Positions 1,786-16,254 of a stretch of 17,802 nucleotides of DNA are shown here, piece by piece. The position numbers and the translations under genes were made by a program. Numbering within the stretch: position 1 is the stretch's first letter; each line of letters starts with the position of its first letter. Under the pieces are notes generated by a model, which searched no databases, had not been told where the DNA came from, and was given only the letters and a program-made list of their open reading frames with translations. The DNA is from Candidatus Heimdallarchaeota archaeon (lineage in GTDB: Archaea > Asgardarchaeota > Heimdallarchaeia > Hodarchaeales > Hodarchaeaceae): assembly GCA_048881705.1 (NCBI GenBank), contig JBHLSH010000077.1:1-17802 (forward strand). Direction: 5' to 3'.

Positions 1786-2544
1786 GTGCCGCCGTCCAAA
1801 TATGAACTGATTATAGGCGATTTGATTGAGACGCTACCCATCAAAGCTAAGGAACGGCAATTCGATCTGCTTATTGCTGATCCCCCATTTGGCATCAAGT
1901 TCAATAAGTCGAGTCACGAATACGGAGCTGAGGACTATGACCTGTACGCAGATGAATTCACACCAGAAGAATACTATCAATTTTCGCAGAAGTGGATAAC
2001 CGCATGCTATCACGCATTGAAAGACACAGGTAGTCTGTATATTATCTCTGGTTGGACAAACCTTCTACCTATTCTCAATGCACTCGAAACCACAGATTTT
2101 CATATGATAAATCATGCAATTTGGCAGTTCTCATGGGGAGTATATACGAAACGTCGATTCGTAACCAGTCATTACCATATCCTTCTCTTGGCCAAGGATG
2201 AAACCAACTATATTTTCAATTATTTCGAACCAGATAACGGTGATGTACTCTATTGGCCGGAATACAATCGCGGGAATGATCCCGATAGAATAAAAGGACA
2301 TCCCTGCCAATTACCTCTACTTCTTTTGGAAAAGCTTGTGTTAACCTCCAGTTCCCCAGGTGATCTGGTTGGAGACGTTTTTAGTGGAAGTGGAGGAACC
2401 ATTTTGGCCGCTCGGAGAACAGGACGAGATGTGGTAGGATTTGAGTTACGAAAAGAATACGAACCAATAATACGACAGAAGGCTCAGTTCGGTCAACAGG
2501 TTACTATCCCTATCCGTAAAACGCCACTAGACCATTTCCTATAG
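1786..2544 (+). CDS. Beta-class amino-DNA methyltransferase (DPPF, probably N6-adenine)
   Basis: GTG start. LLIADPPF (motif IV) near the N-terminus, then DTGSLYI, AIW, HYHILLLAK, GHPCQLP, and C-terminal GDVFSGSGGT (motif I) and GFEL. This is the IV-TRD-I order of the beta class. Confidence 0.9.
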   Translation: MPPSKYELIIGDLIETLPIKAKERQFDLLIADPPFGIKFNKSSHEYGAEDYDLYADEFTPEEYYQFSQKWITACYHALKDTGSLYIISGWTNLLPILNALETTDFHMINHAIWQFSWGVYTKRRFVTSHYHILLLAKDETNYIFNYFEPDNGDVLYWPEYNRGNDPDRIKGHPCQLPLLLLEKLVLTSSSPGDLVGDVFSGSGGTILAARRTGRDVVGFELRKEYEPIIRQKAQFGQQVTIPIRKTPLDHFL

Positions 2545-3031: not shown

Positions 3032-5980
3032 ATGAATTTCAAAACAAAGCGCATTGTTATTTTTTTATGCCTGTTGGCAAGCTTGAATATGATTAATTGG
3101 GCTTTTCAACCAACGGACTTAACATCTGTGTTGATTACATCTCTTAGTAATCCCGACGGGGGAAATATTCCTTCGGAAGAAGATTCCAAGTGGTACAGCT
3201 GGGACTCAGAGGATTTTCAGGTGTTATATGCTGGCAAAAAAGGTGATAACCCGATCCTCATAGTAGGTGATGATGACTTCGTAAAACAGGCAAAAAGGTT
3301 CAAGTGGCCTGGAGACGGATCGGAAACAAGTCCCTATATTATTGAAAATCTCGTGATTACTGTAAAAGCTCGGTTACATGGTAACAGGCCTGTCCCTGCT
3401 GCGGGTATCCAAATAAATGACACAACATTACATTTCATTATTCAAAACAACGTCATTGATGGTGTAAATGGTTTACCGGACGGGATTGCCTTATCTAATG
3501 TAATTCATGGAACCATTCGTAGTAATTACATTTACAATTGCGCTACGGGGATATTTCTCTATAACTCACATGATATTATAATTGACGATAACTATGTCTT
3601 TGGTTATGTACAAACTTCTGCAGCCAGTTCAGTCCGTCTTAGTATACGGAGTGCAGCCCTGAGCTCGTCCAGACATGCGATTTGGCTGGATCCATCCAAC
3701 TACAATACTATATCCAACAATCATATCACTGGTATGTCAGGGAGTTCCATTTACCTGCTTAACTCCTCTGACAACACCGTTGGAGGAAATGAGATAGATA
3801 ATGACGGTGAAGTGGGGATATTTCTAGAAGGCTCGGATAACAATTTACTTGATGACAATGATATTTTCGAAGTTGAGAACCCAGTGTTTCCTCAAGGGAT
3901 TCGCTCCCGTGTGACGGTCAGCTCGGGACGACATGCGATTTGGCTGGACCCCTCTAGCAATAACACCATTTCCAATAATAATATCTCAGATTACTCTGGT
4001 TATGGGGTTTTTTTACAGGATTCTGATCAGAATGATCTTACTGCTAATAATATAGATAACACGAACGGAACGAGTGGGGTTTTCCTAGAAGATTCGTCCT
4101 GGAATACGATTACTGACAACGAAATCTCTGGAACCCCCACTGCAGGTACCGTAAGTGGTCAAGGAGTCCACGCCCGTGTCGCCGTCAGTTCGGGACGTCA
4201 TGCTATCTGGTTGGATCCCTCTAGCAATAATACCATTGAAAATAACACTCTGTCTGGTTTTACGGGTTACGGGGTTTACCTGCAAGAATCTGACGATAAC
4301 AGCCTGACGGGAAACACCATCGACAATTCAGATGGGGATAGCGGAGTATTCCTAGCAAATTCATCCTGGAATACAATTACTGACAACGAGATCTCTGGAA
4401 GCCCCACTGCAGGTACCGTAAGTGGTCAAGGAGTCCACGCCCGTGTCGCCGTCAGTTCAGGACGTCATGCCATCTGGTTAGATCCCTCCAGTAACAATAC
4501 CATTGAAAATAACACTCTGTCTGGTTTTACGGGTTACGGGGTTTATCTGCAAGAATCTGACGATAACAGTCTGACAGGAAACACCATTGACAATACGTAC
4601 GGAGATAGTGGTGTTTTCCTAGAAGATTCGTCCTGGAATACGATTACTGACAACGAGATCTCTGGAAGCCCCACTGCAGGTACCGTAAGTGGTCAAGGAG
4701 TCCACGCCCGTGTGGCCGTCAGTTCGGGAAGGCATGCCATCTGGTTAGATCCCTCCAGTAACAATACTATTGAAAATAACACTTTGTCTGGTTTTACGGG
4801 CTATGGAGTCTTCTTGCAGGATTCTGATGACAATAGTTTGACAGGAAACACCATTGACAATTCAGACGGGGATAGCGGAGTATTCCTAGCAAACTCTTCT
4901 TGGAATTCAATTACCGACAACGACATCTACGGCGATTACAGTGAATCAACTGAAACCGCTCTAAGTATGAGATCCCGTGTGGCTGTTAGTTCGGGACGAC
5001 ATGCTATCTGGCTTGATCCCTCACACCACAATACGATCTCCAATAACCGAATTTTCAATGTGTCTGGTAATGCTGTATATCTGCAGTTATCAAACTTCAA
5101 TGATATCAATGATAACCAAATCAGTAATGGCGGTGCAAATGGAATCTTCCTAGAAGGCTCATCGAATACTAGGATCATTGGGAATGTCCTTTATTCGCAA
5201 ACTGCGTACGCGATTTCCCTTGCTTTCGGTTCTGACGGTAACTCGATAGAAACAAATGACCTGATCGGAAACAATATTGGTGGTTCGTCTCAAGCTTCCG
5301 ACCAGGGGCTCTTAAACGGCTTTGCCTTCAATTTCCTGGTCGATCACGATAATACCGACGACAATAATGACACATACGCCGATGATCCCTATGCGATTGA
5401 TGGAGGTAATTTCGATTACACACCTAATGCCCTCCCTGTTCAAGATCTTGACCAAATTGATATTCGGTTTGCAGATCTTGATGCAGTAGTGGTTTGGGAA
5501 TCTCAAACCTTCAATTTGCAGAAGGAAGGTAATTGGGTGACAGCTAAGATCTTCCTTCCAGAGGGATATTCTAGCACCAATGTCAATGGAAGCACTATTA
5601 GAACCGATGGAAACATCTATGCGGAGTATGTTCAACTGCAACATCCAGACAAGCTTTTCGTCAAATTTAATAGATCGGAACTTGCGGCTTATTTGGAGAC
5701 AGTGGTACCTTATACCCCCATTGACATCAAGATGAACGTCACTGGCTATTTGAACGGAGATTTCCTGTTATTCTATGGATACGATAATATCACTGTAATC
5801 AATGATGATCCAGATGTACCCGTTCTTCAACTGGCTCCTGCGGATAGTTCCTCCTCGGTGGTAGCACAGGTGATGAAAAGTGTGATATTCCCTGGAATCC
5901 CATTGATATTCAGTTTCACATTGTTAACCCTCCTTGGCACGTATATACTAAGGCCTAAGATTCGAAAAAAGAAGAAGTAA
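3032..5980 (+). CDS. Secreted, C-terminally membrane-anchored right-handed parallel beta-helix (NosD/CASH, pectin-lyase-like) surface protein
   Basis: Basic plus hydrophobic N-terminus (MNFKTKRIVIFLCLLASL); 'SPYIIENLVI' cap; many G(I/V)xL..S..N.I..N.I rungs; a C-terminal beta-rich domain (WESQTFNL...LFVKFNR...GYDNITV); Ser-rich linker; TM helix FPGIPLIFSFTLLTLLGTYIL; basic tail RPKIRKKKK; many N-x-S/T sequons. Confidence 0.88.
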   Translation: MNFKTKRIVIFLCLLASLNMINWAFQPTDLTSVLITSLSNPDGGNIPSEEDSKWYSWDSEDFQVLYAGKKGDNPILIVGDDDFVKQAKRFKWPGDGSETSPYIIENLVITVKARLHGNRPVPAAGIQINDTTLHFIIQNNVIDGVNGLPDGIALSNVIHGTIRSNYIYNCATGIFLYNSHDIIIDDNYVFGYVQTSAASSVRLSIRSAALSSSRHAIWLDPSNYNTISNNHITGMSGSSIYLLNSSDNTVGGNEIDNDGEVGIFLEGSDNNLLDDNDIFEVENPVFPQGIRSRVTVSSGRHAIWLDPSSNNTISNNNISDYSGYGVFLQDSDQNDLTANNIDNTNGTSGVFLEDSSWNTITDNEISGTPTAGTVSGQGVHARVAVSSGRHAIWLDPSSNNTIENNTLSGFTGYGVYLQESDDNSLTGNTIDNSDGDSGVFLANSSWNTITDNEISGSPTAGTVSGQGVHARVAVSSGRHAIWLDPSSNNTIENNTLSGFTGYGVYLQESDDNSLTGNTIDNTYGDSGVFLEDSSWNTITDNEISGSPTAGTVSGQGVHARVAVSSGRHAIWLDPSSNNTIENNTLSGFTGYGVFLQDSDDNSLTGNTIDNSDGDSGVFLANSSWNSITDNDIYGDYSESTETALSMRSRVAVSSGRHAIWLDPSHHNTISNNRIFNVSGNAVYLQLSNFNDINDNQISNGGANGIFLEGSSNTRIIGNVLYSQTAYAISLAFGSDGNSIETNDLIGNNIGGSSQASDQGLLNGFAFNFLVDHDNTDDNNDTYADDPYAIDGGNFDYTPNALPVQDLDQIDIRFADLDAVVVWESQTFNLQKEGNWVTAKIFLPEGYSSTNVNGSTIRTDGNIYAEYVQLQHPDKLFVKFNRSELAAYLETVVPYTPIDIKMNVTGYLNGDFLLFYGYDNITVINDDPDVPVLQLAPADSSSSVVAQVMKSVIFPGIPLIFSFTLLTLLGTYILRPKIRKKKK
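3929..4996 (+). repeat. Intragenic tandem repeat, four 267-bp (89-aa) units plus degenerate flanking copies
   Basis: Codons for RHAIWLDPS start at 3671, 3929, 4196, 4463, 4730 and 4997 (spacing 258, then 267 four times). TGCAGGTACCGTAAGTGGTCAAGGAGTCCACGCCCGTGT is identical at 4141, 4408 and 4675. Confidence 0.95.
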
Positions 5981-6020
5981 CTTTCTACCTTCTTCCTTTC
6001 CCATTTTCTTTTTCCCTTTC
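5981..6020 (+). terminator. Pyrimidine/T-rich terminator-like tract after the beta-helix gene
   Basis: CTTTCTACCTTCTTCCTTTCCCATTTTCTTTTTCCCTTTC immediately follows the stop. It is almost purely pyrimidine with T4-T5 runs, as in archaeal intrinsic terminators. Confidence 0.5.
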
Positions 6021-6071
6021 GTTACACGAATTCATCAAAAAATGCGGATTTACATTCAATATAATTTAAAA
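6018..6071 (+). promoter_or_regulatory. Upstream region of TPR-longin gene 1: dyad box A, box B and TATA-like element
   Basis: TTCGT-TAC-ACGAA perfect dyad 6018-6030; GCGGATTTACATT 6044-6056; TTTAAAA 6065-6071, about 28 nt before TTG 6099. Confidence 0.45.
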
Positions 6072-6098
6072 TATTGATCTGGTCATCCTATTCCTGCC

Positions 6099-7910
6099 TT
6101 GTCTATCTTCTCACGTCGGAAACGTTTTTCCAAACCAGCAGATATTATTAAAGAATCCGGCGTAATAAAACAGATGCATAATGACGGAGCCCTAGATGAA
6201 GCAGCCGAAAGATTAGAAAACCTTTTGGGCTCAGTCGATCTACAAAACAAGTCCCTGGTTGATCCCGTTCTTGAGATCCTTAGCAATACGGCCCTTTTCT
6301 TTATTGATCGGGGAGATCTCGATGTAGCAGGAGACTATATTGAAAAAATAGGAAAAATCCGGGAGAAAAGTGACAACAAACTCACATCCGCTACTTTAAC
6401 AGTAAATGAAGCCTATTATTCTATTCTTAGGGGAGAATTGGACGTCGCCTTTGAGCTGCTTACAAAAAGTCTCGAAATTTTCGAACAACTCGATGATCAC
6501 GAATTGGAGAGGACCATCTGTTATAATAACTTAGCTAACATCCATCAAATGCGTGGAGAATTACAGGAGGCCCATGATTATTACCAAAAGGGTATTAGCT
6601 TGGCCAAGAAAATCAACGATAGGCCCCTAATTAGCTTATATCAGAACAATATTGCAACATTGCACCTACTAACAGGTGCGGTAGATGAGGCAGAACAAAA
6701 TTACAAAAACAGCCTAAATGGGCTCGAATCTTCCGAGAATCCCATGGAACTATCTGTGGTCCTATTTAATCTAGCTTGCTTGACAAACCTTCTAAAATCA
6801 TCCAAGGAATCAGAGCAATTTCTACAGCAACTGGAGAATATAAACGCTAAGGAACAGAATCATGCAATAGATAGAATTAATCGTTTAGCAAAAGCTCATG
6901 TGTTGACATCTTCAGCTCGTCTGGTCAAAAGAGCCGAAGCACAAAGAACTTTTCACCAGCTAACAACAGAGGAAAACATTTCGCAAGAGTACCTTCTAAT
7001 GGCACAAAAACAACTTTGCGAATTACTCCTCCAAGAGTTTGCCACAAGTGGAAATGAGAAGGTCCTGTCCGAAATAAAGGAGTTGTTGAAGCAGCTGTCC
7101 GAACGGGCCGAACGTCAATCCTTAACACCGCTCTTGGCTGAAATCTACCTAATTCAGTCCAAGATAGCACTCTTTGAGCTCGATATTAATCTTGCGAGAC
7201 AAAAGTTGCTACAAACCCAAGAAATTTCGGAAAAACAAGGATTTAAATCGCTTGAAGTGATCGTGTCTCGTGAATTTGACAGGATCCCTGAGATCGCCAG
7301 TAAATGGGAGGAATTCGTGGAAACGGGAGCTTCTATGGCCGAGAGATTGGAGCTTGCGGAGTTGGAGGGTATGGTTACTCGATTGATAAAACAGAAGGCT
7401 GATCGTGCCGAGCTTCAAGAAGAAGAACCTGTTCTGTTTTTGATATTAGGCATGAGCGGAATGAGCATCTTTTCTAAACAATTCGGAACTGATGACCAGC
7501 TTATGGCGGATCAGCTAATTGGGGGGTTTATTACCGCCATTAATGCGTTTACCCAGCAGGCTTTTGAAGAATCTCGTTCTATCGAAGGTATAAAACACCA
7601 GGAATACACCTTGCTTTTAAAACCCCTAGAATCTCTTTTATGTTGTTATGCATTCAAAGGTCCGTCCTACTTCGCAATGCAGAAACTTAGGCACTTCACA
7701 GAGGCAGCTGGTATTTCAGAAACTATTCTGAAAACTTTAACAAATGCAAGTAATATAGGCATAGAATTATCCGAAAACCAAGAGATTTCGGAATTGGTGT
7801 CTAGGTATCTCCTCACTTCACAGAAGGATAACCTTCCACAAGTAATGTCAGGGTTTTTTGCACAGAATGCAATAATTACCACTGGAATACCCGTTAAACT
7901 CCTAGGATGA
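6099..7910 (+). CDS. Tetratricopeptide-repeat protein with C-terminal longin-like domain (paralog 1)
   Basis: TTG start. TPR units of about 40 aa (ICYNNLANIHQMRGELQEAHDYYQKGI, LYQNNIATLHLLTGAVDEAEQNY), a helical solenoid, and from about 7428 a beta-beta-alpha-beta-beta-beta-alpha-alpha pattern (PVLFLIL, MSIFSKQF, DQLIGGFITAINAF, IEGIKH, YTLLLK, LCCYAFKG, AMQKL) consistent with a longin fold. Confidence 0.8.
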   Translation: MSIFSRRKRFSKPADIIKESGVIKQMHNDGALDEAAERLENLLGSVDLQNKSLVDPVLEILSNTALFFIDRGDLDVAGDYIEKIGKIREKSDNKLTSATLTVNEAYYSILRGELDVAFELLTKSLEIFEQLDDHELERTICYNNLANIHQMRGELQEAHDYYQKGISLAKKINDRPLISLYQNNIATLHLLTGAVDEAEQNYKNSLNGLESSENPMELSVVLFNLACLTNLLKSSKESEQFLQQLENINAKEQNHAIDRINRLAKAHVLTSSARLVKRAEAQRTFHQLTTEENISQEYLLMAQKQLCELLLQEFATSGNEKVLSEIKELLKQLSERAERQSLTPLLAEIYLIQSKIALFELDINLARQKLLQTQEISEKQGFKSLEVIVSREFDRIPEIASKWEEFVETGASMAERLELAELEGMVTRLIKQKADRAELQEEEPVLFLILGMSGMSIFSKQFGTDDQLMADQLIGGFITAINAFTQQAFEESRSIEGIKHQEYTLLLKPLESLLCCYAFKGPSYFAMQKLRHFTEAAGISETILKTLTNASNIGIELSENQEISELVSRYLLTSQKDNLPQVMSGFFAQNAIITTGIPVKLLG

Positions 7911-7951
7911 TTAGAGATCTAGGAAAAATTATCTTATCAAAAAGGATAATA

Positions 7952-7998
7952 GCGGATTCACATTTTCTGCTGTCTAGTAACCCTTCTTCGTTACGCGA
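7952..7998 (+). promoter_or_regulatory. Upstream region of TPR-longin gene 2: box B, then box A
   Basis: GCGGATTCACATT 7952-7964 (12/13 match to 6044-6056) and TTCGTTACGCGA 7987-7998 (11/12 match to 6018-6029). Confidence 0.4.
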
Positions 7999-8030
7999 TA
8001 ATCGAATATCGATCATTTAAGAAATCAAGA

Positions 8031-10256
8031 ATGGAGGAAAATTTGGTGTCTTTTACGTTTTTAACTGATTCTCTGGATTGGATTAAAGAAAGGTTTGGAC
8101 TAGACAGAAACAGACAAGCTCTGACCCAAATTGATTCCCTAATCCAACAAGGTAATCATGATCAGGCTCTTGCCAGGATTGAGGAATTATTTCTAAAAGA
8201 GAATATACCCCCCCGTATCCAGATCGAAAACAAATTGCTCAAATGCGAGATTCTACTAGAGAAAGGTGAGAATACTGAATGCGGCGAACTAGCCAGAGAA
8301 ACGAAGAAGGCTGCGGAACAAAACGAACTGATGGTATTACAAAAAAAAGCTGTAATTATGGAAGCGAATGCCCTAATAGGATTGGGACAAATTAACGAAT
8401 CCTTGGAACTTATCAAGGATATGGAAGCTGAAGAAATCTCAAATAATGAAGTTAAAGCCCAGCTATTGAGGGTAAAAGGAATTGCCATGCGAAGAAAAGG
8501 AGAGCTAGATCCAGCGCTCGAACACTTAAGCGAAGCTTTAGTGATTTACCAAAGATTGAAGAAAAAAAATTTTCCCATTGCAGGTTTGTATAATACTATC
8601 GGCATTATTCATGCATCTAAGGGTTCTCTTGATAAAGCGTCCGAGTTTCTACAGCTCAGTCTATCAAAGTATGAAGAACTCGGAAACGAAAGGCCCGCTT
8701 TCAAAATAATGAACAATTTGGGAATGATGCACTCATACCGCGGGGATTTGGATCGAGCTCTGCAGTATCTAAACCGAGCATTGGAACTAAACGAAGAATA
8801 CGGGTCACCGCAAACTGAAGCGGCAATGTTTTCTAACATCGGCAACATTTACATTGGCAAAGGCGAACTAACCCTTGCCCTTGATTATATCCAGAGGGCT
8901 CTGAAGAGGTATGAAGAGCTCGAAAGCAAGGTGGATATTGGCGATGCATTGAACAATCTGGGAAATATATATGAGGAAATAGGAGATCTAAAAGAAGCCG
9001 AATCAGCCTATACTCGTTGCTTGGAAATTTACCAGGACCTTGAAAATGATCTTGAGATTTCTCTTGTAATGAACAATCTGGGAAATATCTATACAGTTGG
9101 GGGTGAGCTAGATAAATCAATATCCTATTATGAGAAAGCCTTGGCTCTATCTGAATCTGTAGGCAGTACTCTGGATATTGTCCATTCTTTAAGAAACCTG
9201 ATCGAAGCCTCAATTCAAAACGGCCAGATGGATGAAGCCCAAGAATACCTTCAAAAATTGGGGGAGATTGCTAAGGGAGAGGACAATAAAACAATAGATC
9301 AAGGTCATCGGTTATCGAACGCGATCTTACTCAAGGCCAGTGATCGCATGGTTGAACGGGCTGAGGCTCAAGAAATTTTCCAGCAAATCGCCGAAGAGGA
9401 GGTAGTGGAACATCAATATACCGTTCAATCGATGTTAAACCTTTGTGATCTCTTATTAGATGAATTAAAATCATCTGGAAGCGAAGAGGTTGTAGAAGAG
9501 ATTAATTCTTTATTAGCCCGTCTATTAGAAATAGCAGAAAGCCAGAATTCTTTCAAACATCTTATTAACACACAACGACTCCAATCTCAAATGGCCCTGT
9601 TGGAATTAGATCTGAATAAGGCTCGACAGCTAATGGCTCAAGCCCAGGAAACGGCTGAAGAAAAAGGCCTACACCGACTAGCTATTGCAATATCGGCTGA
9701 CATTGATAGGCTTATGAATCAACTAAATAAATGGGAAGATCTAATAGAACGGAATGTGGGTATGGTAGAAAGGTTAGAAATGGCTGAACTGGAGGATATG
9801 GTATCCAACATAATTCAGAAAAAACAAGAAATCCCAGAATTTACAGTAGAAGAGCCTGTACTCTTTTTAATGCTTTCAAATACGGGAGCTGTACATTTCA
9901 AGAAGGAACTTACATCCAAGGAGGATTTGGACGATAGAATCATTGGAGATTTGCTTACTGCAATTAATAGCTTTGTCCAGGAAGCGTTCTCCGCTTCGGG
10001 AGTAATAGAAAGGATAAGAGTCAAGGATTATACCCTTATCATTAAACCACTAGTCGAGCAAATATTATGTTGTTTTGTTTTCAAAGGCCAGTCATATTCA
10101 GCTGTACAGAAATTGGAGAAGTTTATACAAACAACGAAAGACTCAAGTTTCATCTGGGACATCGTTAAGCAGACTTCAAAAGCTAAAAAGGCAGTCAAGA
10201 CCTTGGATGATCTTAGTACCGAGATTTTTATGTCTCCAATCAGTCAAGAGGCTTAG
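8031..10256 (+). CDS. Tetratricopeptide-repeat protein with C-terminal longin-like domain (paralog 2)
   Basis: Five to six regular 40-aa TPR units with an Asn ladder (YNTIG, MNNLG, FSNIG, LNNLG, MNNLG, LRNLI). The C-terminal half aligns by eye with paralog 1 (RMVERAEAQ, ERLEMAELE, EEPVLFLML, IGDLLTAINSF, LCCFVFKGQSY). Alternative start GTG 8046 has GGAGG 8 nt upstream. Confidence 0.85.
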   Translation: MEENLVSFTFLTDSLDWIKERFGLDRNRQALTQIDSLIQQGNHDQALARIEELFLKENIPPRIQIENKLLKCEILLEKGENTECGELARETKKAAEQNELMVLQKKAVIMEANALIGLGQINESLELIKDMEAEEISNNEVKAQLLRVKGIAMRRKGELDPALEHLSEALVIYQRLKKKNFPIAGLYNTIGIIHASKGSLDKASEFLQLSLSKYEELGNERPAFKIMNNLGMMHSYRGDLDRALQYLNRALELNEEYGSPQTEAAMFSNIGNIYIGKGELTLALDYIQRALKRYEELESKVDIGDALNNLGNIYEEIGDLKEAESAYTRCLEIYQDLENDLEISLVMNNLGNIYTVGGELDKSISYYEKALALSESVGSTLDIVHSLRNLIEASIQNGQMDEAQEYLQKLGEIAKGEDNKTIDQGHRLSNAILLKASDRMVERAEAQEIFQQIAEEEVVEHQYTVQSMLNLCDLLLDELKSSGSEEVVEEINSLLARLLEIAESQNSFKHLINTQRLQSQMALLELDLNKARQLMAQAQETAEEKGLHRLAIAISADIDRLMNQLNKWEDLIERNVGMVERLEMAELEDMVSNIIQKKQEIPEFTVEEPVLFLMLSNTGAVHFKKELTSKEDLDDRIIGDLLTAINSFVQEAFSASGVIERIRVKDYTLIIKPLVEQILCCFVFKGQSYSAVQKLEKFIQTTKDSSFIWDIVKQTSKAKKAVKTLDDLSTEIFMSPISQEA

Positions 10257-10286
10257 GGAGATCTAATTGGTTCCTACTGAAATACT

Positions 10287-10544
10287 CTAGGATTTTTCTC
10301 TGTCTTCACGGTTTTTCAGTTTCTCAGTGGGAAAGATCCAATGTGTTGACCCACAGAATGAACAAGGAGGCTCCATCGTACCTTTGACATCTTGGAGCGC
10401 CCCGAATTCTCGAATTTCGATTCCCCGCAAACAGCGAGAGCAATAGGCTGCTAAATGCGATTTTAACTCCGTTCCTGAGAGCATTGAGTAAGTACTGATC
10501 ATTCGCCTAAGAAAAAAATCGCTCGCCCGATTTGCGAATGTCAA
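10287..10544 (-). CDS. Small Zn-ribbon protein (CxxC-x22-CxxC); true N-terminus uncertain, probably membrane-anchored
   Basis: YCSRCLRG...PPCSFCGSTHWIF. The frame stays open upstream to 10709 and encodes two hydrophobic segments there, but has no ATG/GTG/TTG before TTG 10544. Confidence 0.6.
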   Translation of the reverse strand: MTFANRASDFFLRRMISTYSMLSGTELKSHLAAYCSRCLRGIEIREFGALQDVKGTMEPPCSFCGSTHWIFPTEKLKNREDREKS

Positions 10545-10819
10545 TACCCTATCTTGATTAGGATAAATGATTCCAAGAACAAAAAAGAATCCTCCAATGG
10601 TTACAATCCCGATTCTAAGGTAAAGACTTTGATTTAAGGTAAAAAGAAGAGCTATTACAGCAATTAGCCCACCCCAATGCAGATTAGACCACTCTGGAGT
10701 GAGTAAACGTTACGTAAAGGGTGATACGTACTATATACCAGATGGAGTCGTCCATTCAGCAGAATTTCATACCCCTGTAAGGGCTATGGACTTTTTTGCG
10801 GAACCGAGTAGATACCATA

Positions 10820-12574
10820 CTAAATAACGGGTAGTTGAATGTCGGAAAGCCCAAAATGTTGTAATACCGCCGTATCCAGCTTTTCGCGAAGTGCTATGAA
10901 TGATGAAGATGAGGTAGAAATATTGGATAATGATTTTGACAATTTCACGATCTCAAAACCCGTCCCTTCCTGTAGATTAGCATCTTTCAGGGGAAATCGA
11001 CGAAGGTTCCTGATGCTAATGGCATTTGTGTAACGAGAACCAAGATTGAATTGCCTCTCATAATACCATTGAATTAATCGCGAATTAAAAATCGCTAGAA
11101 TATAATATAGAATTTCAGGAGACCCCTTATAATCTGATTTTAATTGCAGATTATAGACATTTTGCGTTGTCCGATGAGAATCGTAATCAAAGGCTGCACA
11201 TGGGACACGTTTAATCTTTTGAAATATCAGTTTGGGCGATTTATAAATTCCTGTTTCCTTTTTGGAATAAAATGGGACGCTGTTATCGAAATAATGGGTT
11301 TTTTTAATCTCAAATTCACCAAAATCTAATCCGGTCAGGATATGTTCAGTATGTCTATCATCGGGGCGAGATTTGATAAGGTGATATAGCTGTAACCGCG
11401 TTTTTGGAATGGCATTCGTACAACGAGGACAGATTGTAAACCTTTTTCGGCTTGAAAAGGGTACCCATTCCTTACAGCGTGGGCAAAACATAATCGTTCC
11501 CTTTTTAGAAAGCTCTTCTCCGCGACGGATCGTGATAAAAGATTCTAAAGGTTGTGAATTATGTGTAATAGCTTGATGGATTTGTTGGAATTCCGAATTA
11601 TAATCACGTGTAAAAATGAAATCTATAGTTTTGCTATACAGTAATTGGGGAATCTGAATTGTCTTATCAACGACGATTTTATGACCCGAAGGTACTAGTT
11701 CAGTTTTTCGTGCAACAAGAGAAATATATTCCTGTGTCACGTTTTGAAACAAATTAAAAAAGTCGAGTGTCAAAATTTGGTAGGTACTAAGGATAAATTC
11801 TCTTAACGCTGTGTAATGATTAGAACGTGTAATGTTTTTGGGCAGAAGGAACCCCAAAATCCCCCTCGAGGGGGCAAGGAGATGCGTTGCCTTGTGGAGG
11901 AAGATTTCAAAGACGTTTAGGTTACGAAGAGAACTTTCAATATTGAATTCCTTTTTCCATCGAGATTTTTCCTTCCGTTGAAGTATATTACGACCCCATG
12001 GAGGATTACCGATTACAATGTCAACCCCCTTGATTCCTTTCAGGTTTGACCAGTCATCCAAAGTAGATTCCAAGAAATTTCCTTGTATCAGGTTTCGCAC
12101 GATATTTGTGTTAATGGCGTTTTTCTCAGGATTATGAATCTGACCGAGCAAGGTGATAATATTTTCATGACATTCTTGTACAGCCATTGGGGCAATGTCC
12201 ATCCCAAAGAGATTGGACTGTACAATATCACGCAACAAATCATGTTCGGTGGTAACCTTTGCCATTAGGCGCCTGTTGGTTGCCTGACGAACTTGACTAA
12301 GAAATCCCAACGCCGCGAGAATGAGCTGCCCGTCCCCGACGGCGCCATCCAAAACTGTAACATGTCTAGCAGCTTGATCGAGGCGATCAATGACATTATG
12401 GTCACTGGCTGATAAGGCGTCATCTAACGAATCAAAGAATTTTCCAGTGCCCTTCGAGATATCATGGAGGAAAAAACTGGAGAGGGCAGTCTGGACCAGA
12501 TGTTTTGCTGGGCCACTCGGGGTGTAATATGCCCCTAACTCCTTCTGATTAATATTCTGCAACTCGAAGACCAA
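10820..12574 (-). CDS. Gamma-class N6-adenine DNA methyltransferase (Eco57I/TaqI-like MTase core plus TRD), no nuclease domain
   Basis: TTG start. LGAYYTP (motif X), VLDGAVGDG (degenerate motif I), GMDI, GNFL, IVIGNPPW (motif IV), FEIFL, GILGFLLP, then a TaqI_C-like TRD (PKLIFQKI, YILAIFNSRLIQWYY, LRRFPL, EKLDTAVLQHFGLS). CPRC-x14-CPRC insert at 11420-11485. Confidence 0.88.
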   Translation of the reverse strand: MVFELQNINQKELGAYYTPSGPAKHLVQTALSSFFLHDISKGTGKFFDSLDDALSASDHNVIDRLDQAARHVTVLDGAVGDGQLILAALGFLSQVRQATNRRLMAKVTTEHDLLRDIVQSNLFGMDIAPMAVQECHENIITLLGQIHNPEKNAINTNIVRNLIQGNFLESTLDDWSNLKGIKGVDIVIGNPPWGRNILQRKEKSRWKKEFNIESSLRNLNVFEIFLHKATHLLAPSRGILGFLLPKNITRSNHYTALREFILSTYQILTLDFFNLFQNVTQEYISLVARKTELVPSGHKIVVDKTIQIPQLLYSKTIDFIFTRDYNSEFQQIHQAITHNSQPLESFITIRRGEELSKKGTIMFCPRCKEWVPFSSRKRFTICPRCTNAIPKTRLQLYHLIKSRPDDRHTEHILTGLDFGEFEIKKTHYFDNSVPFYSKKETGIYKSPKLIFQKIKRVPCAAFDYDSHRTTQNVYNLQLKSDYKGSPEILYYILAIFNSRLIQWYYERQFNLGSRYTNAISIRNLRRFPLKDANLQEGTGFEIVKLSKSLSNISTSSSSFIALREKLDTAVLQHFGLSDIQLPVI

Positions 12575-12602
12575 TCTACGTTAGGTACGATGGCCTAGGC
12601 AT

Positions 12603-15533
12603 TTAAGTAAGCTGGATATGTGACTGACAAGTTACACAAAAATCCTGTGACACTAACCAATCCTGAAGGTGCTCTAGGTGGTATGCCTGATTACATATGG
12701 GGCATCTGAGTAATGTTTGATCCTGAACTGGATCTTGGCAAAGAACACATACAGGTTCTTCTTTTGGTACTTTCACTCTTCGGATGACATCATCCGTCGT
12801 AAGGGGCTGATAGGCCATATCCGTACTAATCATCAGGGCCGATTCCTCATCGTCTCGCCGTCCAAGATCTTGTTCCTCTAATTTTGGAGTGGTTGACGTC
12901 AAGAGAATAAAGGAGTAGTTCCGTTCTATGTGGGAAAACAAGTCCTGGAAAAGCGGAATCGTTTTTTCTGAATGGGGAAGTCCCCCTAGTATTATCATCT
13001 TTCTTTTTGCTCGTGTAAGCGCCACATTTAATCGACGTTCGTCCTCCAGGATATGAGGGCGGACAAGGGTGCATAGGGATAGAATTATAACTTCCTTATC
13101 AGAGCCCTGGAAGCGATCAATTGTATCAATGACTACTTCACTTTCGGTTCCGACCAATCGGGTAATTTCTGCAACCTGGCCACGAAATGGTGCAATGACA
13201 CCAATATCTTCTTCCTTGATTCCCATCTTAAGATAGGCATTAACAATCTTGTGCGCAGCAACTGCCTCTTCAGGATTCACGCGTCTTTTCTCGTCAAAAT
13301 TCGTTTGTATTCCAACGTATACCAATGGTTGGTTCGGATCAAGAATAGTTTGATATATTGGATCACTGGAAAAGGTTGAGGTGTCTTCTGGTAATATCTC
13401 CCACAAAGTTTGATTGCCAATCTGAGCCGTAGCTGGCGAAACCGTTCCGTGGTAAAACCTCTTGTTGCTGAAATCCATCAGGGCATTATGCATACGGTAT
13501 TGGTATTGTAACTGGACAACTCCATCAGGATGCACCTTCCTAAGCCGTTCAAACATGCTTGTACTCAATCCCTCACGATCGGCCCTAGGGTTTTGAATGA
13601 GCGGCGGCAATTGTTTGTCATCTCCTACGAGAATGAAACGTGTCCCCTTGGTCACCCCAGCTAGAACGGAAGGTTCTGTCATTTGTGATGCTTCATCCAC
13701 GATTACCATATCAACTGTTAGATCATCGTACAGGCTACGAGAAAGAGTACTAGTGGTACCTGCCAAAATGGGAGATTTTAATAATTCATGGAATGTCAAA
13801 CCTTTTTCTTGGGGTAAGAGATCGAGTGTGGAGGAAGAGACCGCATGTTCGCTTCCGAAGCGTACGATTTCCTGCCTTTTATCATCCCCAACGAGCGCTA
13901 AATATAGATCTATAATGTTGTCAACGGCTGTATTTGTATATGCGGTCAGTAGGATGGTTTGTCCCTGTCTACGCAAAATTTCGACAAGTTTAGCTATTGT
14001 GTATGTCTTACCCGTACCGGCTGGACCGACTATCAAGCAATAATCTAGAGCGGATAGAGCTTTCTGAATAGCATCTGACTGGCTTTTATCAAATCCAGGA
14101 ACCTCCTGAACAGTTACGGAACCGAATCTCGGTTTTTTGGCATTAATAATGAGGTCGTGTGATTTGTGGTCTTTTCTGATTCCAAAAGTAATATCGAACA
14201 GATTCTTGTTAAGTCTGCGAAAGAGAAAATCAGATGAATATGCATCAACATACGCAGTTTTAGGTAATTTGCCTTGACTATTCAAAACGACCTTTGATCG
14301 ACTGATTTCTGCAATAGTAGCCATCAGAGTGTTATCTAAAACAGGATTTCCTTGACTTATGATAACTAACTGTCCTGAGCGGAGTTCAGAATTGTTAATA
14401 CCATTATAGAGGTAAAGGTTCTTCTTTTTGTTTTTCTTGGTCAGCTTCAGGTCTGGAATCGCCTTTCCCAGCTTAACTCGTCCTTGGGGTGATAATTTCC
14501 ATAAAAATGAAAAATCTTGACGATTCTTTGTATGTTCCAATCCCGTCAATCTACTCCAGTGTGTTAGATAGAGAAACGCCCTCGATGGAGCAGATGCATT
14601 TTCATCAAAAATATCCCCGAGAATGTGACATTCTTCTTTACTGAAACAACGATCACAGACTTTAGTTCCTAAGATCTTCGGTATATATCCAGAAAATTGA
14701 ACAAGATAGGAATAATTACGCGCCATATGTATTTGTTGTAGAAGTGTTTGATCAAGGTTGGTCTGACGAAACGCTGGTATACCCTCTCCCGAATAAATAA
14801 CCGAGCTTTTGGTTACCGCTTTTTCAGAACTAGAACTAAGTCCGTGCATGTAAATCACTGTCTGGAGAAGGTCAGAAAACCATGTGTTTCTTTGGGGAAT
14901 TCTTCTACCAGTCTTTAGTTCATAGATTTCTTCGGGACTCCAGTAATCGATACGTCCCATAATTCCGAATTCTGGACTAAGAAATGTGATTTCAGGCTGT
15001 ACAGTCTTTGATTGGAGTGTAGGAGCTGAAAGCTCTAAACCTCTTAATACACGGAGGACATCTTTCCTCAATTCTTCCAGATTAACTTCAAGAATATCCA
15101 ATATGAACGCAAATCGTTCAATTGCAGTTTCCATTGCATCTTGGGCGGGAGTATAATTGGCAATGATATTAGAGTACGCCTCATGGATTATAGATCCTCG
15201 AACCATGGGAAGGTTGGTTCTAGTCTCACCCAAGATATGGTCGATATATGCACGACGAGGACAGGAACCAGCACTTGTTATTGCACGCGAATTGATCAGG
15301 ACATCAGGGTTGAGTAAAATCAGTGTATCGGGGGTTGTTTCATAGATATTTTCCGCTTCATCCACCAGGAAGGGATTGATCACCCGAATAGGTGTATAAT
15401 ACTCAACACTAGAAAATGGAAAAAATACCCAAGGACGAAAGAGCGCCAACTGAATAGTCATTTGGTTTTGGAGGTCAAATAGCTTAAGATCTCCGTTGTT
15501 TCGCTCCAAAAAGACGGTGTCAATGATTTTCAT
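12603..15533 (-). CDS. dna2: Dna2-type Fe-S nuclease / SF1B helicase with C-terminal RING-like zinc finger
   Basis: N-terminal LILLNPDVLINSRAITSAGSCPRRAYI (Dna2 signature). Nuclease motifs GSIIHE, GRID, YELKTG, QTVIY. Four Fe-S cysteines C91, C293, C296, C302. Helicase motifs GPAGTGKT, TNTAVDN, VDEASQ, LVGDDKQLPP, QYRMH, PFRGQV, TIDRFQG, RRLNVALTRAK. C-terminal C-x2-C-x11-C-x2-C-x4-H-x2-H-x10-C-x2-C. Confidence 0.9.
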   Translation of the reverse strand: MKIIDTVFLERNNGDLKLFDLQNQMTIQLALFRPWVFFPFSSVEYYTPIRVINPFLVDEAENIYETTPDTLILLNPDVLINSRAITSAGSCPRRAYIDHILGETRTNLPMVRGSIIHEAYSNIIANYTPAQDAMETAIERFAFILDILEVNLEELRKDVLRVLRGLELSAPTLQSKTVQPEITFLSPEFGIMGRIDYWSPEEIYELKTGRRIPQRNTWFSDLLQTVIYMHGLSSSSEKAVTKSSVIYSGEGIPAFRQTNLDQTLLQQIHMARNYSYLVQFSGYIPKILGTKVCDRCFSKEECHILGDIFDENASAPSRAFLYLTHWSRLTGLEHTKNRQDFSFLWKLSPQGRVKLGKAIPDLKLTKKNKKKNLYLYNGINNSELRSGQLVIISQGNPVLDNTLMATIAEISRSKVVLNSQGKLPKTAYVDAYSSDFLFRRLNKNLFDITFGIRKDHKSHDLIINAKKPRFGSVTVQEVPGFDKSQSDAIQKALSALDYCLIVGPAGTGKTYTIAKLVEILRRQGQTILLTAYTNTAVDNIIDLYLALVGDDKRQEIVRFGSEHAVSSSTLDLLPQEKGLTFHELLKSPILAGTTSTLSRSLYDDLTVDMVIVDEASQMTEPSVLAGVTKGTRFILVGDDKQLPPLIQNPRADREGLSTSMFERLRKVHPDGVVQLQYQYRMHNALMDFSNKRFYHGTVSPATAQIGNQTLWEILPEDTSTFSSDPIYQTILDPNQPLVYVGIQTNFDEKRRVNPEEAVAAHKIVNAYLKMGIKEEDIGVIAPFRGQVAEITRLVGTESEVVIDTIDRFQGSDKEVIILSLCTLVRPHILEDERRLNVALTRAKRKMIILGGLPHSEKTIPLFQDLFSHIERNYSFILLTSTTPKLEEQDLGRRDDEESALMISTDMAYQPLTTDDVIRRVKVPKEEPVCVLCQDPVQDQTLLRCPICNQAYHLEHLQDWLVSQDFCVTCQSHIQLT

Positions 15534-15801: not shown

Positions 15802-16254
15802 ATGAAAGGAGGAACTCATATTCTGTTTGGGATGGGGTTCGTCGGCATCATACTATATAGATTGGATTTCTGGCTATGGGTAGGAGGTACGCTTATTCTC
15901 GCGCCAATCTTTTCTCGTCTCCCCGATTATGACCAAAAGATATCAAGAATAACATTCAACCAGATTATTCCTCATAGAGGTAAATGGACGCACAACCTTT
16001 TGTTTGGACTCCCTTTAGGCCTACTTCTATGGATCCCCCCTGAAATGGAGCTCGTTTGGATGGGATTGGTTGGCAGTTTCGGTGCCTTATTTGCTCACGT
16101 ATTTGTAGATGCCTTCAACTATGCTGGAGTTTGGGTTGGATTTATTAAATTAAAGGTGGGAAAATTCAGCTGGGATTCATTAATTGGAAACCTAGCATTT
16201 AAAGTATTAGGACTAATAGCTTTGGGATTTGCTCTTGTGACGTACTTGCTTTAA
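15802..16254 (+). CDS. YdjM-like (LexA-binding) membrane-bound metal-dependent hydrolase
   Basis: THILFG, LPDYDQ, HRGKWTHNL and AHVFVDAFN..GV metal-ligand motifs interspersed with hydrophobic helices. Confidence 0.85.
   Translation: MKGGTHILFGMGFVGIILYRLDFWLWVGGTLILAPIFSRLPDYDQKISRITFNQIIPHRGKWTHNLLFGLPLGLLLWIPPEMELVWMGLVGSFGALFAHVFVDAFNYAGVWVGFIKLKVGKFSWDSLIGNLAFKVLGLIALGFALVTYLL

Follow-up and report, generated by a model that had tools for sequence, protein, structure and literature searches.

Control of DNA replication and repair by ubiquitin is seen as a hallmark of eukaryotes, with examples such as the ubiquitylation of PCNA by Rad18/Rad5, the Fanconi pathway and SMC5/6-Nse1, and many analyses place the archaeal class Heimdallarchaeia near the eukaryotic stem. 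[quoted passage not shown] An Asgard E1/E2/RING cascade has been reconstituted (10.1101/2023.07.25.550441), and a small RING protein of Caldiarchaeum, srfp, is an active E3 ligase that needs an Ile, a Trp and an Arg residue (PMC5654768). A 2025 study of the Asgard replisome built a Dna2 tree and states that eukaryotic Dna2 seems to be related to some Asgard homologues; the terms 'RING', 'zinc finger' and 'ubiquitin' do not occur in that paper (PMC12680538). Here, we analyze a 17,802-nucleotide stretch of DNA (the window; contig JBHLSH010000077.1 of assembly GCA_048881705.1, Candidatus Heimdallarchaeota archaeon) that encodes Dna2-RING, a Dna2-type nuclease-helicase carrying a RING-type zinc finger at its C-terminus. 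This fusion hints at a possible link between the processing of DNA flaps or DNA ends and ubiquitin signaling.

We place high confidence in the overall architecture, that is, in the Dna2 and RING folds taken together: a Dna2 core is joined by a flexible linker of ~45 residues to a C-terminal RING-H2-type zinc finger. The linker sequence is poorly conserved among aligned orthologues, and part of it (residues 881-897) is predicted to be disordered in the AlphaFold2 (AF2) model. The gene and its parts are as follows.

12603-15533, minus strand: the whole Dna2-RING gene, the longest open reading frame (ORF) overlapping the feature, 976 amino acids plus stop codon
14514-15533, minus strand: N-terminal beta-rich domain and RecB/PD-(D/E)XK nuclease with 4Fe-4S cysteines, residues 1 to ~340 (Pfam Dna2, PDDEXK_1)
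12894-14111, minus strand: helicase core of superfamily 1B (SF1B; Upf1/Dna2-type), residues ~475-880 (AAA_11, AAA_12)
12750-12893, minus strand: charged variable linker, residues ~881-928, with a predicted local distance difference test score (pLDDT) below 50 at 881-897
12606-12749, minus strand: C-terminal RING-H2-variant finger (C4H2C2), residues 929-976, with ligand codons at 12627-12749

Residues 1 to ~880 are securely assigned as a complete Dna2, in which a RecB-type nuclease, the iron-sulfur (Fe-S) cysteines and an SF1B helicase lie in one chain. A Pfam scan of the 976-residue protein found the Dna2 family (PF08696) at residues 23-143 with an expect value (E) of 1.3e-13, and also matched PDDEXK_1, AAA_11 and AAA_12, with PDDEXK_1 and Dna2 scoring above their cut-offs. 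The sequence contains the N-terminal signature LLNPDVL...C91-P-R-R, the nuclease motif D196...E205-L-K207...Q224-x3-Y228, and Fe-S cysteines C91, C293, C296 and C302 in the arrangement C-x201-C-x2-C-x5-C, which is exactly the Dna2-type spacing; the helicase motifs include a Walker A sequence (GPAGTGKT, 503-510) and DEASQ at 613-617. Across a 46-sequence alignment of Asgard, haloarchaeal, bathyarchaeal and bacterial homologues, D196, K207, Q224, Y228, C91, C293 and C302 are invariant, as are Walker A, Walker B and helicase motifs III-VI; at least 90% of the rows retain E205 and C296.

The top sequence match in the Protein Data Bank (PDB) was mouse DNA2, with residues 474-875 aligned to mouse 619-1041 (phmmer, E 1e-62) in an alignment that covers the helicase and, weakly, the start of the nuclease. 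A full-length AF2 model made from the 46-sequence input (pLDDT 89.2, predicted template modeling score 0.88) had as its best Foldseek matches the mouse Dna2 crystal structures 5EAN, 5EAW and 5EAX; the match to 5EAN extends over 1033 columns (E 1.5e-55, template modeling (TM) scores 0.74/0.69). The Dna2 assignment is secure because the whole-chain fold match is mouse Dna2, while the next matches, Ighmbp2 and Upf1, span the helicase half only. The core is a putative nuclease for 5' flaps or single-stranded DNA ends, with a RecB domain predicted to be stabilized by a 4Fe-4S cluster, followed by a putative 5'-3' SF1B helicase.

By homology and predicted fold, the C-terminal finger is a variant of the RING-H2 type. 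Its ligands are C929, C932, C944, C947, H952, H955, C966 and C969, accompanied by W959, and together they form the pattern C-x2-C-x11-C-x2-C-x4-H-x2-H-x3-W-x6-C-x2-C, encoded by codons at positions 12749-12627. This pattern is not due to chance: an alignment of 27 fingers (11 Dna2 orthologue tails and 16 small Asgard proteins retrieved with the finger as query) shows no variation at any of the eight ligands or at the Trp, and 48 Dna2-RING proteins, whose identity to the window protein ranges from 27 to 96%, carry the ligand pattern at their C-terminus. When the last 75 residues were scanned alone, the best Pfam match was zf-RING_2 (22.9 bits, E 1e-4), with PHD, C1 and zf-rbx1 scoring below it; zf-RING_2 also matched 27 of the 27 aligned fingers, reaching E 3.4e-9 among the relatives, and Prok-RING_1 matched 18 of them. 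A profile of the 27 fingers, searched against PDB sequences, placed Arkadia on top (E 1.7e-10) within a series of RING-H2 E3 ligases spanning 1.7e-10 to 1e-6, with RNF24, RNF126, RNF38, RNF165, HRD1, EL5, RLIM and gp78 among the further top matches.

Structural comparison of the modeled tail pointed the same way. The AF2 tail model has a core pLDDT of 76-89 and a helix (953-962) after ligands 5 and 6, as in RINGs, and its top 50 matches were all RING or U-box proteins both in Foldseek (TM up to 0.78, root-mean-square deviation (rmsd) 1.3-2.5 Å) and in an all-against-representatives search with VIA-align (Z 4.8-6.2, rmsd 1.3-3 Å). A cross-brace with two zinc ions is predicted from this fold and from homology. 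When the ligands are mapped onto RING-H2 proteins, C947 corresponds to the canonical C3, Q949 to the canonical His4, and H952 and H955 to ligands 5 and 6; the fourth ligand comes from C944, two residues upstream, so that a CPxC knuckle replaces the canonical C3-x-H4 pair and gives a C4H2C2 ligand set.

Fingers of this RING-H2-variant type are very abundant in Asgard archaea: 290 of 400 genomes together gave over 1100 matches, with single genomes reaching 15 or more, and most of these fingers form the C-terminal end of proteins of 140-480 residues that have no other annotation. In addition, a second large ORF of the same genome (contig C41:3629-6763, minus strand; 1045 residues) ends in the same RING variant (C-x2-C...CPRC...H-x2-H...CPNC). 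This ORF matched no Pfam domain at E <= 0.001, and it may be another enzyme-RING fusion.

The fusion extends well beyond the window. A word-indexed search recovered 28 orthologues at 49-96% identity, and the finger is present in all 26 that are complete (962-986 residues), the other two being truncated partial sequences; the metagenome-assembled genomes from which they come are labeled Heimdallarchaeota, Hodarchaeales, Promethearchaeota and Thorarchaeota, the last label being probably wrong. An exhaustive HMMER search of 1.84 billion cluster representatives added 17 further Dna2-RING proteins of ~1000 residues, down to 27% identity, among its top 150 matches. Within the same top 150 representatives, no C-terminal RING pattern was found in eukaryotic, bacterial, bathyarchaeal or haloarchaeal Dna2. 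Haloarchaeal Dna2 at ~30% identity stops just past the helicase.

A whole-genome scan found the Pfam Dna2 domain in 53 of 83 genomes of the class, and most intact Dna2 ORFs there are 970-1070 residues long. By family (f1 to f7), it is present in 10 of 21 genomes of f1 in addition to the window's own, in the single f3 genome (1/1), in all 31 of f4 and in 10 of 12 of f6; it was not found by Pfam in f2, f5 and f7, except for one f2 match of 21.3 bits that lies under the cut-off. Among 317 genomes from the rest of the phylum, the scan gave only five weaker Dna2 matches, in longer ORFs. At 14 loci examined in f1, f3, f4 and f6, all 12 filter-passing Dna2 ORFs (from f1, f3 and f4) end in the finger, and many f4 Dna2 ORFs and one f6 Dna2 ORF are the same ORFs that the finger search matched; in f6, the RING tail was seen in one matched genome and several cluster representatives. 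Judged from these ORFs, Dna2-RING is the standard form of Dna2 in the class, and it looks class-specific. One f4 copy (G021:C189:10195-10647) has an in-frame TAA inside the Dna2 domain that leaves an open frame of 172 residues, and this may reflect a pseudogene or a sequencing error.

A FastTree phylogeny of 72 Dna2 and outgroup sequences, many of them rows without a taxon label, placed the RING-bearing proteins in two clades within an unresolved polytomy that also holds bathyarchaeal, bacterial and haloarchaeal Dna2, and the RING clades were not adjacent to the main eukaryotic clade. This tree is neutral on whether the fusion arose once and on whether the RING-bearing proteins are sister to eukaryotic Dna2.

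In the window's genome, 4 UQ_con, 5 ThiF and 3 ubiquitin matches fall into three clusters, located on contigs C15, C57 and C72. The C15 cluster (6000-15500) is an ESCRT/ubiquitin cluster typical for Hodarchaeales and includes genes for Vps28, a UEV/E2-like protein, a Rab-like GTPase, Yip1, a ThiF-type E1, ubiquitin, a KaiC-like ATPase, an Arf-like GTPase and a 112-residue RING-H2 protein. In the finger itself, L931 and W959 occupy the positions of the Ile and Trp with which known RINGs touch E2, and all 23 sequences of the window clade (those with at least 45% identity) conserve both. The equivalent residues of Caldiarchaeum srfp, I30 and W58, are needed for its function (PMC5654768). The 25 sequences of the other Dna2-RING clades retain Pro after ligand 7 (24/25) and the Lys/Arg linchpin after ligand 8 (21/25); these sister clades keep all four canonical E2/E2~Ub contact positions (Ile/Leu, Trp, Pro, Lys/Arg).

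With modest conviction, the account we favor is that of a class-specific archaeal Dna2 whose RING tail engages ubiquitin machinery. On this account, the nuclease-helicase would act on long flaps or resected ends, like eukaryotic Dna2, and the tethered RING would bring a component of the ubiquitin machinery, most likely one of the genome's E2s charged with ubiquitin, to the DNA structure under processing. The outcome could be modification of Dna2 itself or of a neighboring replication or repair protein. In the window clade, the finger probably binds its partner, with the activation of E2~Ub probably weak or modified.

Several observations weigh against this account. The score of the window protein scanned alone is below the gathering cut-off of zf-RING_2 (22.9 versus 27.3 bits); the gene is dispensable, being missing from 11 of 21 other genomes of the window's genus, two of them 96% complete; and no E2 or ubiquitin gene lies near Dna2-RING in any locus examined. 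In addition, the residue after ligand 7 in the window clade (n = 23) is V, A or T and never Pro (V in the window protein), the linchpin is Gln in 23 of 23 sequences, and mutation of the linchpin-equivalent position of the Caldiarchaeum RING (R69A) impaired its cascade (PMC5654768). Finally, the structural matches include non-catalytic RINGs, namely those of Slx1 bound to Slx4, of GATOR2 and of SEA.

Because Gln is invariant at the linchpin, the position appears to be under constraint rather than in decay, and its replacement of Lys/Arg suggests altered or weakened E2~Ub activation, or a different partner. E3 activity is plausible but probably weakened in the window clade, since Pro and the linchpin are replaced there whereas sister clades keep them. 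A working E3 ligase in the window protein is thus a somewhat doubtful proposition, and one that appears somewhat more likely for the clades with a CPxCK ending. More specifically, we tentatively propose that the Dna2-RING of Heimdallarchaeia may work as a nuclease-helicase-E3, ubiquitylating either itself or a partner in replication or repair at the flap or DNA end being processed. The fully canonical CPxCK clades would then be ancestral and active, and the clade with the Gln linchpin would be a toned-down descendant of that state.

The alternative that survives best is that the RING is a non-catalytic interaction or scaffold module, which anchors Dna2 to a replisome or repair partner or dimerizes it, much as the Slx1 RING binds Slx4 or as RINGs serve a structural role in GATOR2, with no transfer of ubiquitin. 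This possibility deserves a serious, if minority, place: its closest folds include the Slx1 RING-Slx4 complexes (4zdt, 7cq2) as well as RINGs of GATOR2 and SEA, the pairing of an invariant Gln and a highly conserved finger with the loss of Pro and linchpin would fit a constrained but different interface, and the neighborhoods of the examined loci yielded no ubiquitin-system genes. However, the sister Dna2-RING clades retain the full E2-activating set, active RING-H2 ligases are the nearest in sequence among proteins of solved structure, and those related small archaeal RINGs that have been assayed act as E3s, all of which speak against this alternative.

The genes that adjoin Dna2-RING in the window bear on a further alternative. 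The two flanking features are the following.

10820-12574, minus strand: Eco57I/TaqI_C-type N6-adenine DNA methyltransferase (Pfam), downstream of Dna2-RING
15802-16254: YdjM membrane protein gene, on the flank of Dna2-RING opposite the methyltransferase

Dna2-RING shows a clean presence/absence polymorphism within the genus. In four Dna2-negative genomes, the flanks are intact and the methyltransferase and YdjM genes adjoin or lie a few short ORFs apart, and tblastn detected no Dna2 remnants in five loci of Dna2-negative relatives. The gene is considered dispensable because half of the genus has cleanly lost it. In this genus, archaeal Dna2 is thereby shown to be non-essential, in contrast to the Dna2 of yeast. 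The start of the methyltransferase gene lies 28 bp beyond the Dna2 stop codon, and 6 of 7 genus loci have the two genes in the same orientation. Its retention in 20 of 21 genus genomes, with or without Dna2-RING, marks it as a neighbor and not an obligate partner. It is not adjacent to Dna2-RING in f3, f4 or f6. In f4 (loci L070-L073 and L075), a gene resembling the large subunit of replication factor C (RFC), 511-528 residues long and with AAA, RCF1-5 lid and Rad17 P-loop domains, lies within 0-4 genes of Dna2-RING, which suggests that the f4 gene sits in a replication-gene neighborhood.

It was also considered whether Dna2-RING and the downstream methyltransferase form a modification-linked defense or repair module, with the nuclease-helicase as a restriction-like effector. 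The short distance and shared strand, the maintenance of the pair in 6 of 7 genus loci, the presence of three DNA methyltransferases in the window, and partial helicase matches to MkoA, DpdJ and Hhe in PADLOC would fit such a module. It is nonetheless largely refuted, and we regard it as very improbable: the methyltransferase is kept regardless of Dna2-RING and adjoins YdjM where Dna2-RING is missing from otherwise intact synteny, the neighbors differ in f3, f4 and f6 (with the RFC large subunit close by in f4), the PADLOC matches are limited to the generic helicase core, and the NCBIfam scores fall far below their cut-offs (ProA, 63 bits versus 1500; Hhe, 49.5 versus 2000). Known anti-phage systems (Prometheus/ProA, Hhe, Mokosh, Dpd) were rejected as candidates, as NCBIfam and PADLOC matched the helicase core only and gave no full-length match to a signature protein.

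The window contains three DNA amino-methyltransferase genes, at 181-1059 and 1786-2544 (both N6_N4_Mtase) and the above-mentioned gene at 10820-12574 (Eco57I/TaqI_C), and no recognizable restriction enzyme was found near them. They look like core genes and not mobile restriction-modification genes because they are syntenic across the genus, with the third found in 20 of 21 genomes. Between them, 3032-5980 encodes a 982-residue secreted or anchored right-handed beta-helix protein (NosD/Beta_helix) with several near-identical repeats of ~90 residues and a hydrophobic C-terminal anchor that precedes a KKKK tail, and 6099-10256 encodes two tandem paralogous TPR proteins (603 and 741 residues) that have in common a conserved C-terminal domain of ~130 residues unmatched by Pfam.

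The proposal that the finger instead recognizes DNA or the tails of archaeal histones, as a PHD-like or other treble-clef zinc module, which draws on the resemblance of its C-x2-C...C-x2-C-x4-H-x2-[H] spacing to the C4HC3 of PHD fingers and on weak Pfam matches to PHD, PHDvar_NSD and C1_1 (E 6e-4 to 3.5e-3), is highly unlikely, as the profile search ranks RING-H2 ligases 6-8 orders of magnitude ahead of PHD proteins (E >1e-3 only), neither structural search has PHD, ZZ or FYVE in its top 50, PHD matched 11 of the fingers versus 27 of 27 for zf-RING_2, and the Trp lies on the central helix as in RING-H2. A PHD, ZZ or C1 identity was accordingly rejected by the PDB profile search, the fold searches and the family-wide Pfam scan.

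Much of what a sequence-only reading of this locus had put forward was borne out by these analyses. The complete Dna2 it described is upheld by Pfam, by the intact motifs and by the sequence and fold matches to mouse DNA2; its finger pattern and coordinates (12627-12749) match the sequence exactly; the RING identity it gave to the finger agrees with profile and fold searches that put RING and U-box proteins, not PHD or ZZ, on top; and the ubiquitin, E1 and E2 genes it expected are present in the genome. It had also noted no RING in the human and yeast Dna2 proteins, as holds for eukaryotic Dna2 sequences and the mouse structure, and had not recognized the architecture as a described one, in agreement with full-text literature searches that found no description of a Dna2-RING fusion. 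The E3 activity that it put forward is plausible only, with the changed Pro and linchpin positions as a sequence-based reason for caution in the window clade. Of the refuting outcome that it named, a fusion both widespread and already characterized, only the first half applied: the fusion proved to be widespread, as the standard form in the class, and the literature search found no description of it. The fusion is therefore apparently undescribed, with the parts (a Dna2 orthologue and an archaeal RING-H2) being known and their class-wide conserved fusion apparently new.

In archaea, a class-wide RING-bearing Dna2 is a tangible candidate, amenable to cloning, for connecting DNA metabolism with the ubiquitin system. 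If the proposed function is correct, it would be the first prokaryotic enzyme that couples the processing of DNA structures directly to ubiquitin signaling, and it could represent a forerunner of ubiquitin-based DNA-damage and replication control in eukaryotes. In addition, the canonical CPxCK and derived CV(T)CQ fingers offer a natural comparison for the role of the linchpin.

Comparison with known systems places Dna2-RING at the intersection of several families. Eukaryotic Dna2 (mouse 5EAN/5EAW/5EAX; yeast) has the same N-terminal beta domain, RecB nuclease with Fe-S cysteines, beta-barrel and stalk, and SF1B helicase, with a fold TM of ~0.7 over ~1030 columns. However, its chain ends directly after the helicase and bears no RING, it has a long N-terminal extension that the archaeal protein lacks, and the archaeal gene is dispensable in the window's genus. 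Dna2-like proteins of haloarchaea, bathyarchaea and bacteria share ~30% identity over 81-87% of the query, together with the same nuclease, Fe-S and helicase motifs, but they end 10-15 residues past the last helicase motif, without linker or finger.

For the finger, RING-H2 E3s (Arkadia/RNF111, RNF24, RNF38, RNF165, HRD1, EL5, Rbx1) are related by profile homology, by an rmsd of 1.3-2.5 Å over ~50 residues, by a hydrophobic residue located between the first two ligands and by the Trp-Leu on the central helix. They differ in that the window finger has Q949 at the canonical His4 position and an extra Cys two residues upstream (CPxC), and in that the window clade has V for Pro after ligand 7 and Q for Lys/Arg after ligand 8. 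The active Caldiarchaeum E3 shows the same two-residue ligand shift with an extra Cys (PMC5654768), and the window finger aligns with many small Asgard RINGs. These archaeal E3s (Caldiarchaeum srfp, the Asgard ESCRT/ubiquitin-cluster RING, Prok-RING_1) are short proteins that stand alone, and for some the gene lies in a ubiquitin operon, whereas the window RING is the tail of a 976-residue DNA enzyme, is encoded far from ubiquitin genes and lacks the Lys/Arg linchpin. Rad5/HLTF, SHPRH and Slx1 are likewise DNA helicases or nucleases that bear a RING, and the fold matches include the RINGs of Rad5 and Slx1. Their catalytic parts belong to unrelated families (SF2 Snf2 and GIY-YIG, versus SF1B and RecB), and in Rad5 the RING is inserted within the helicase, whereas in Dna2-RING it forms the C-terminus.

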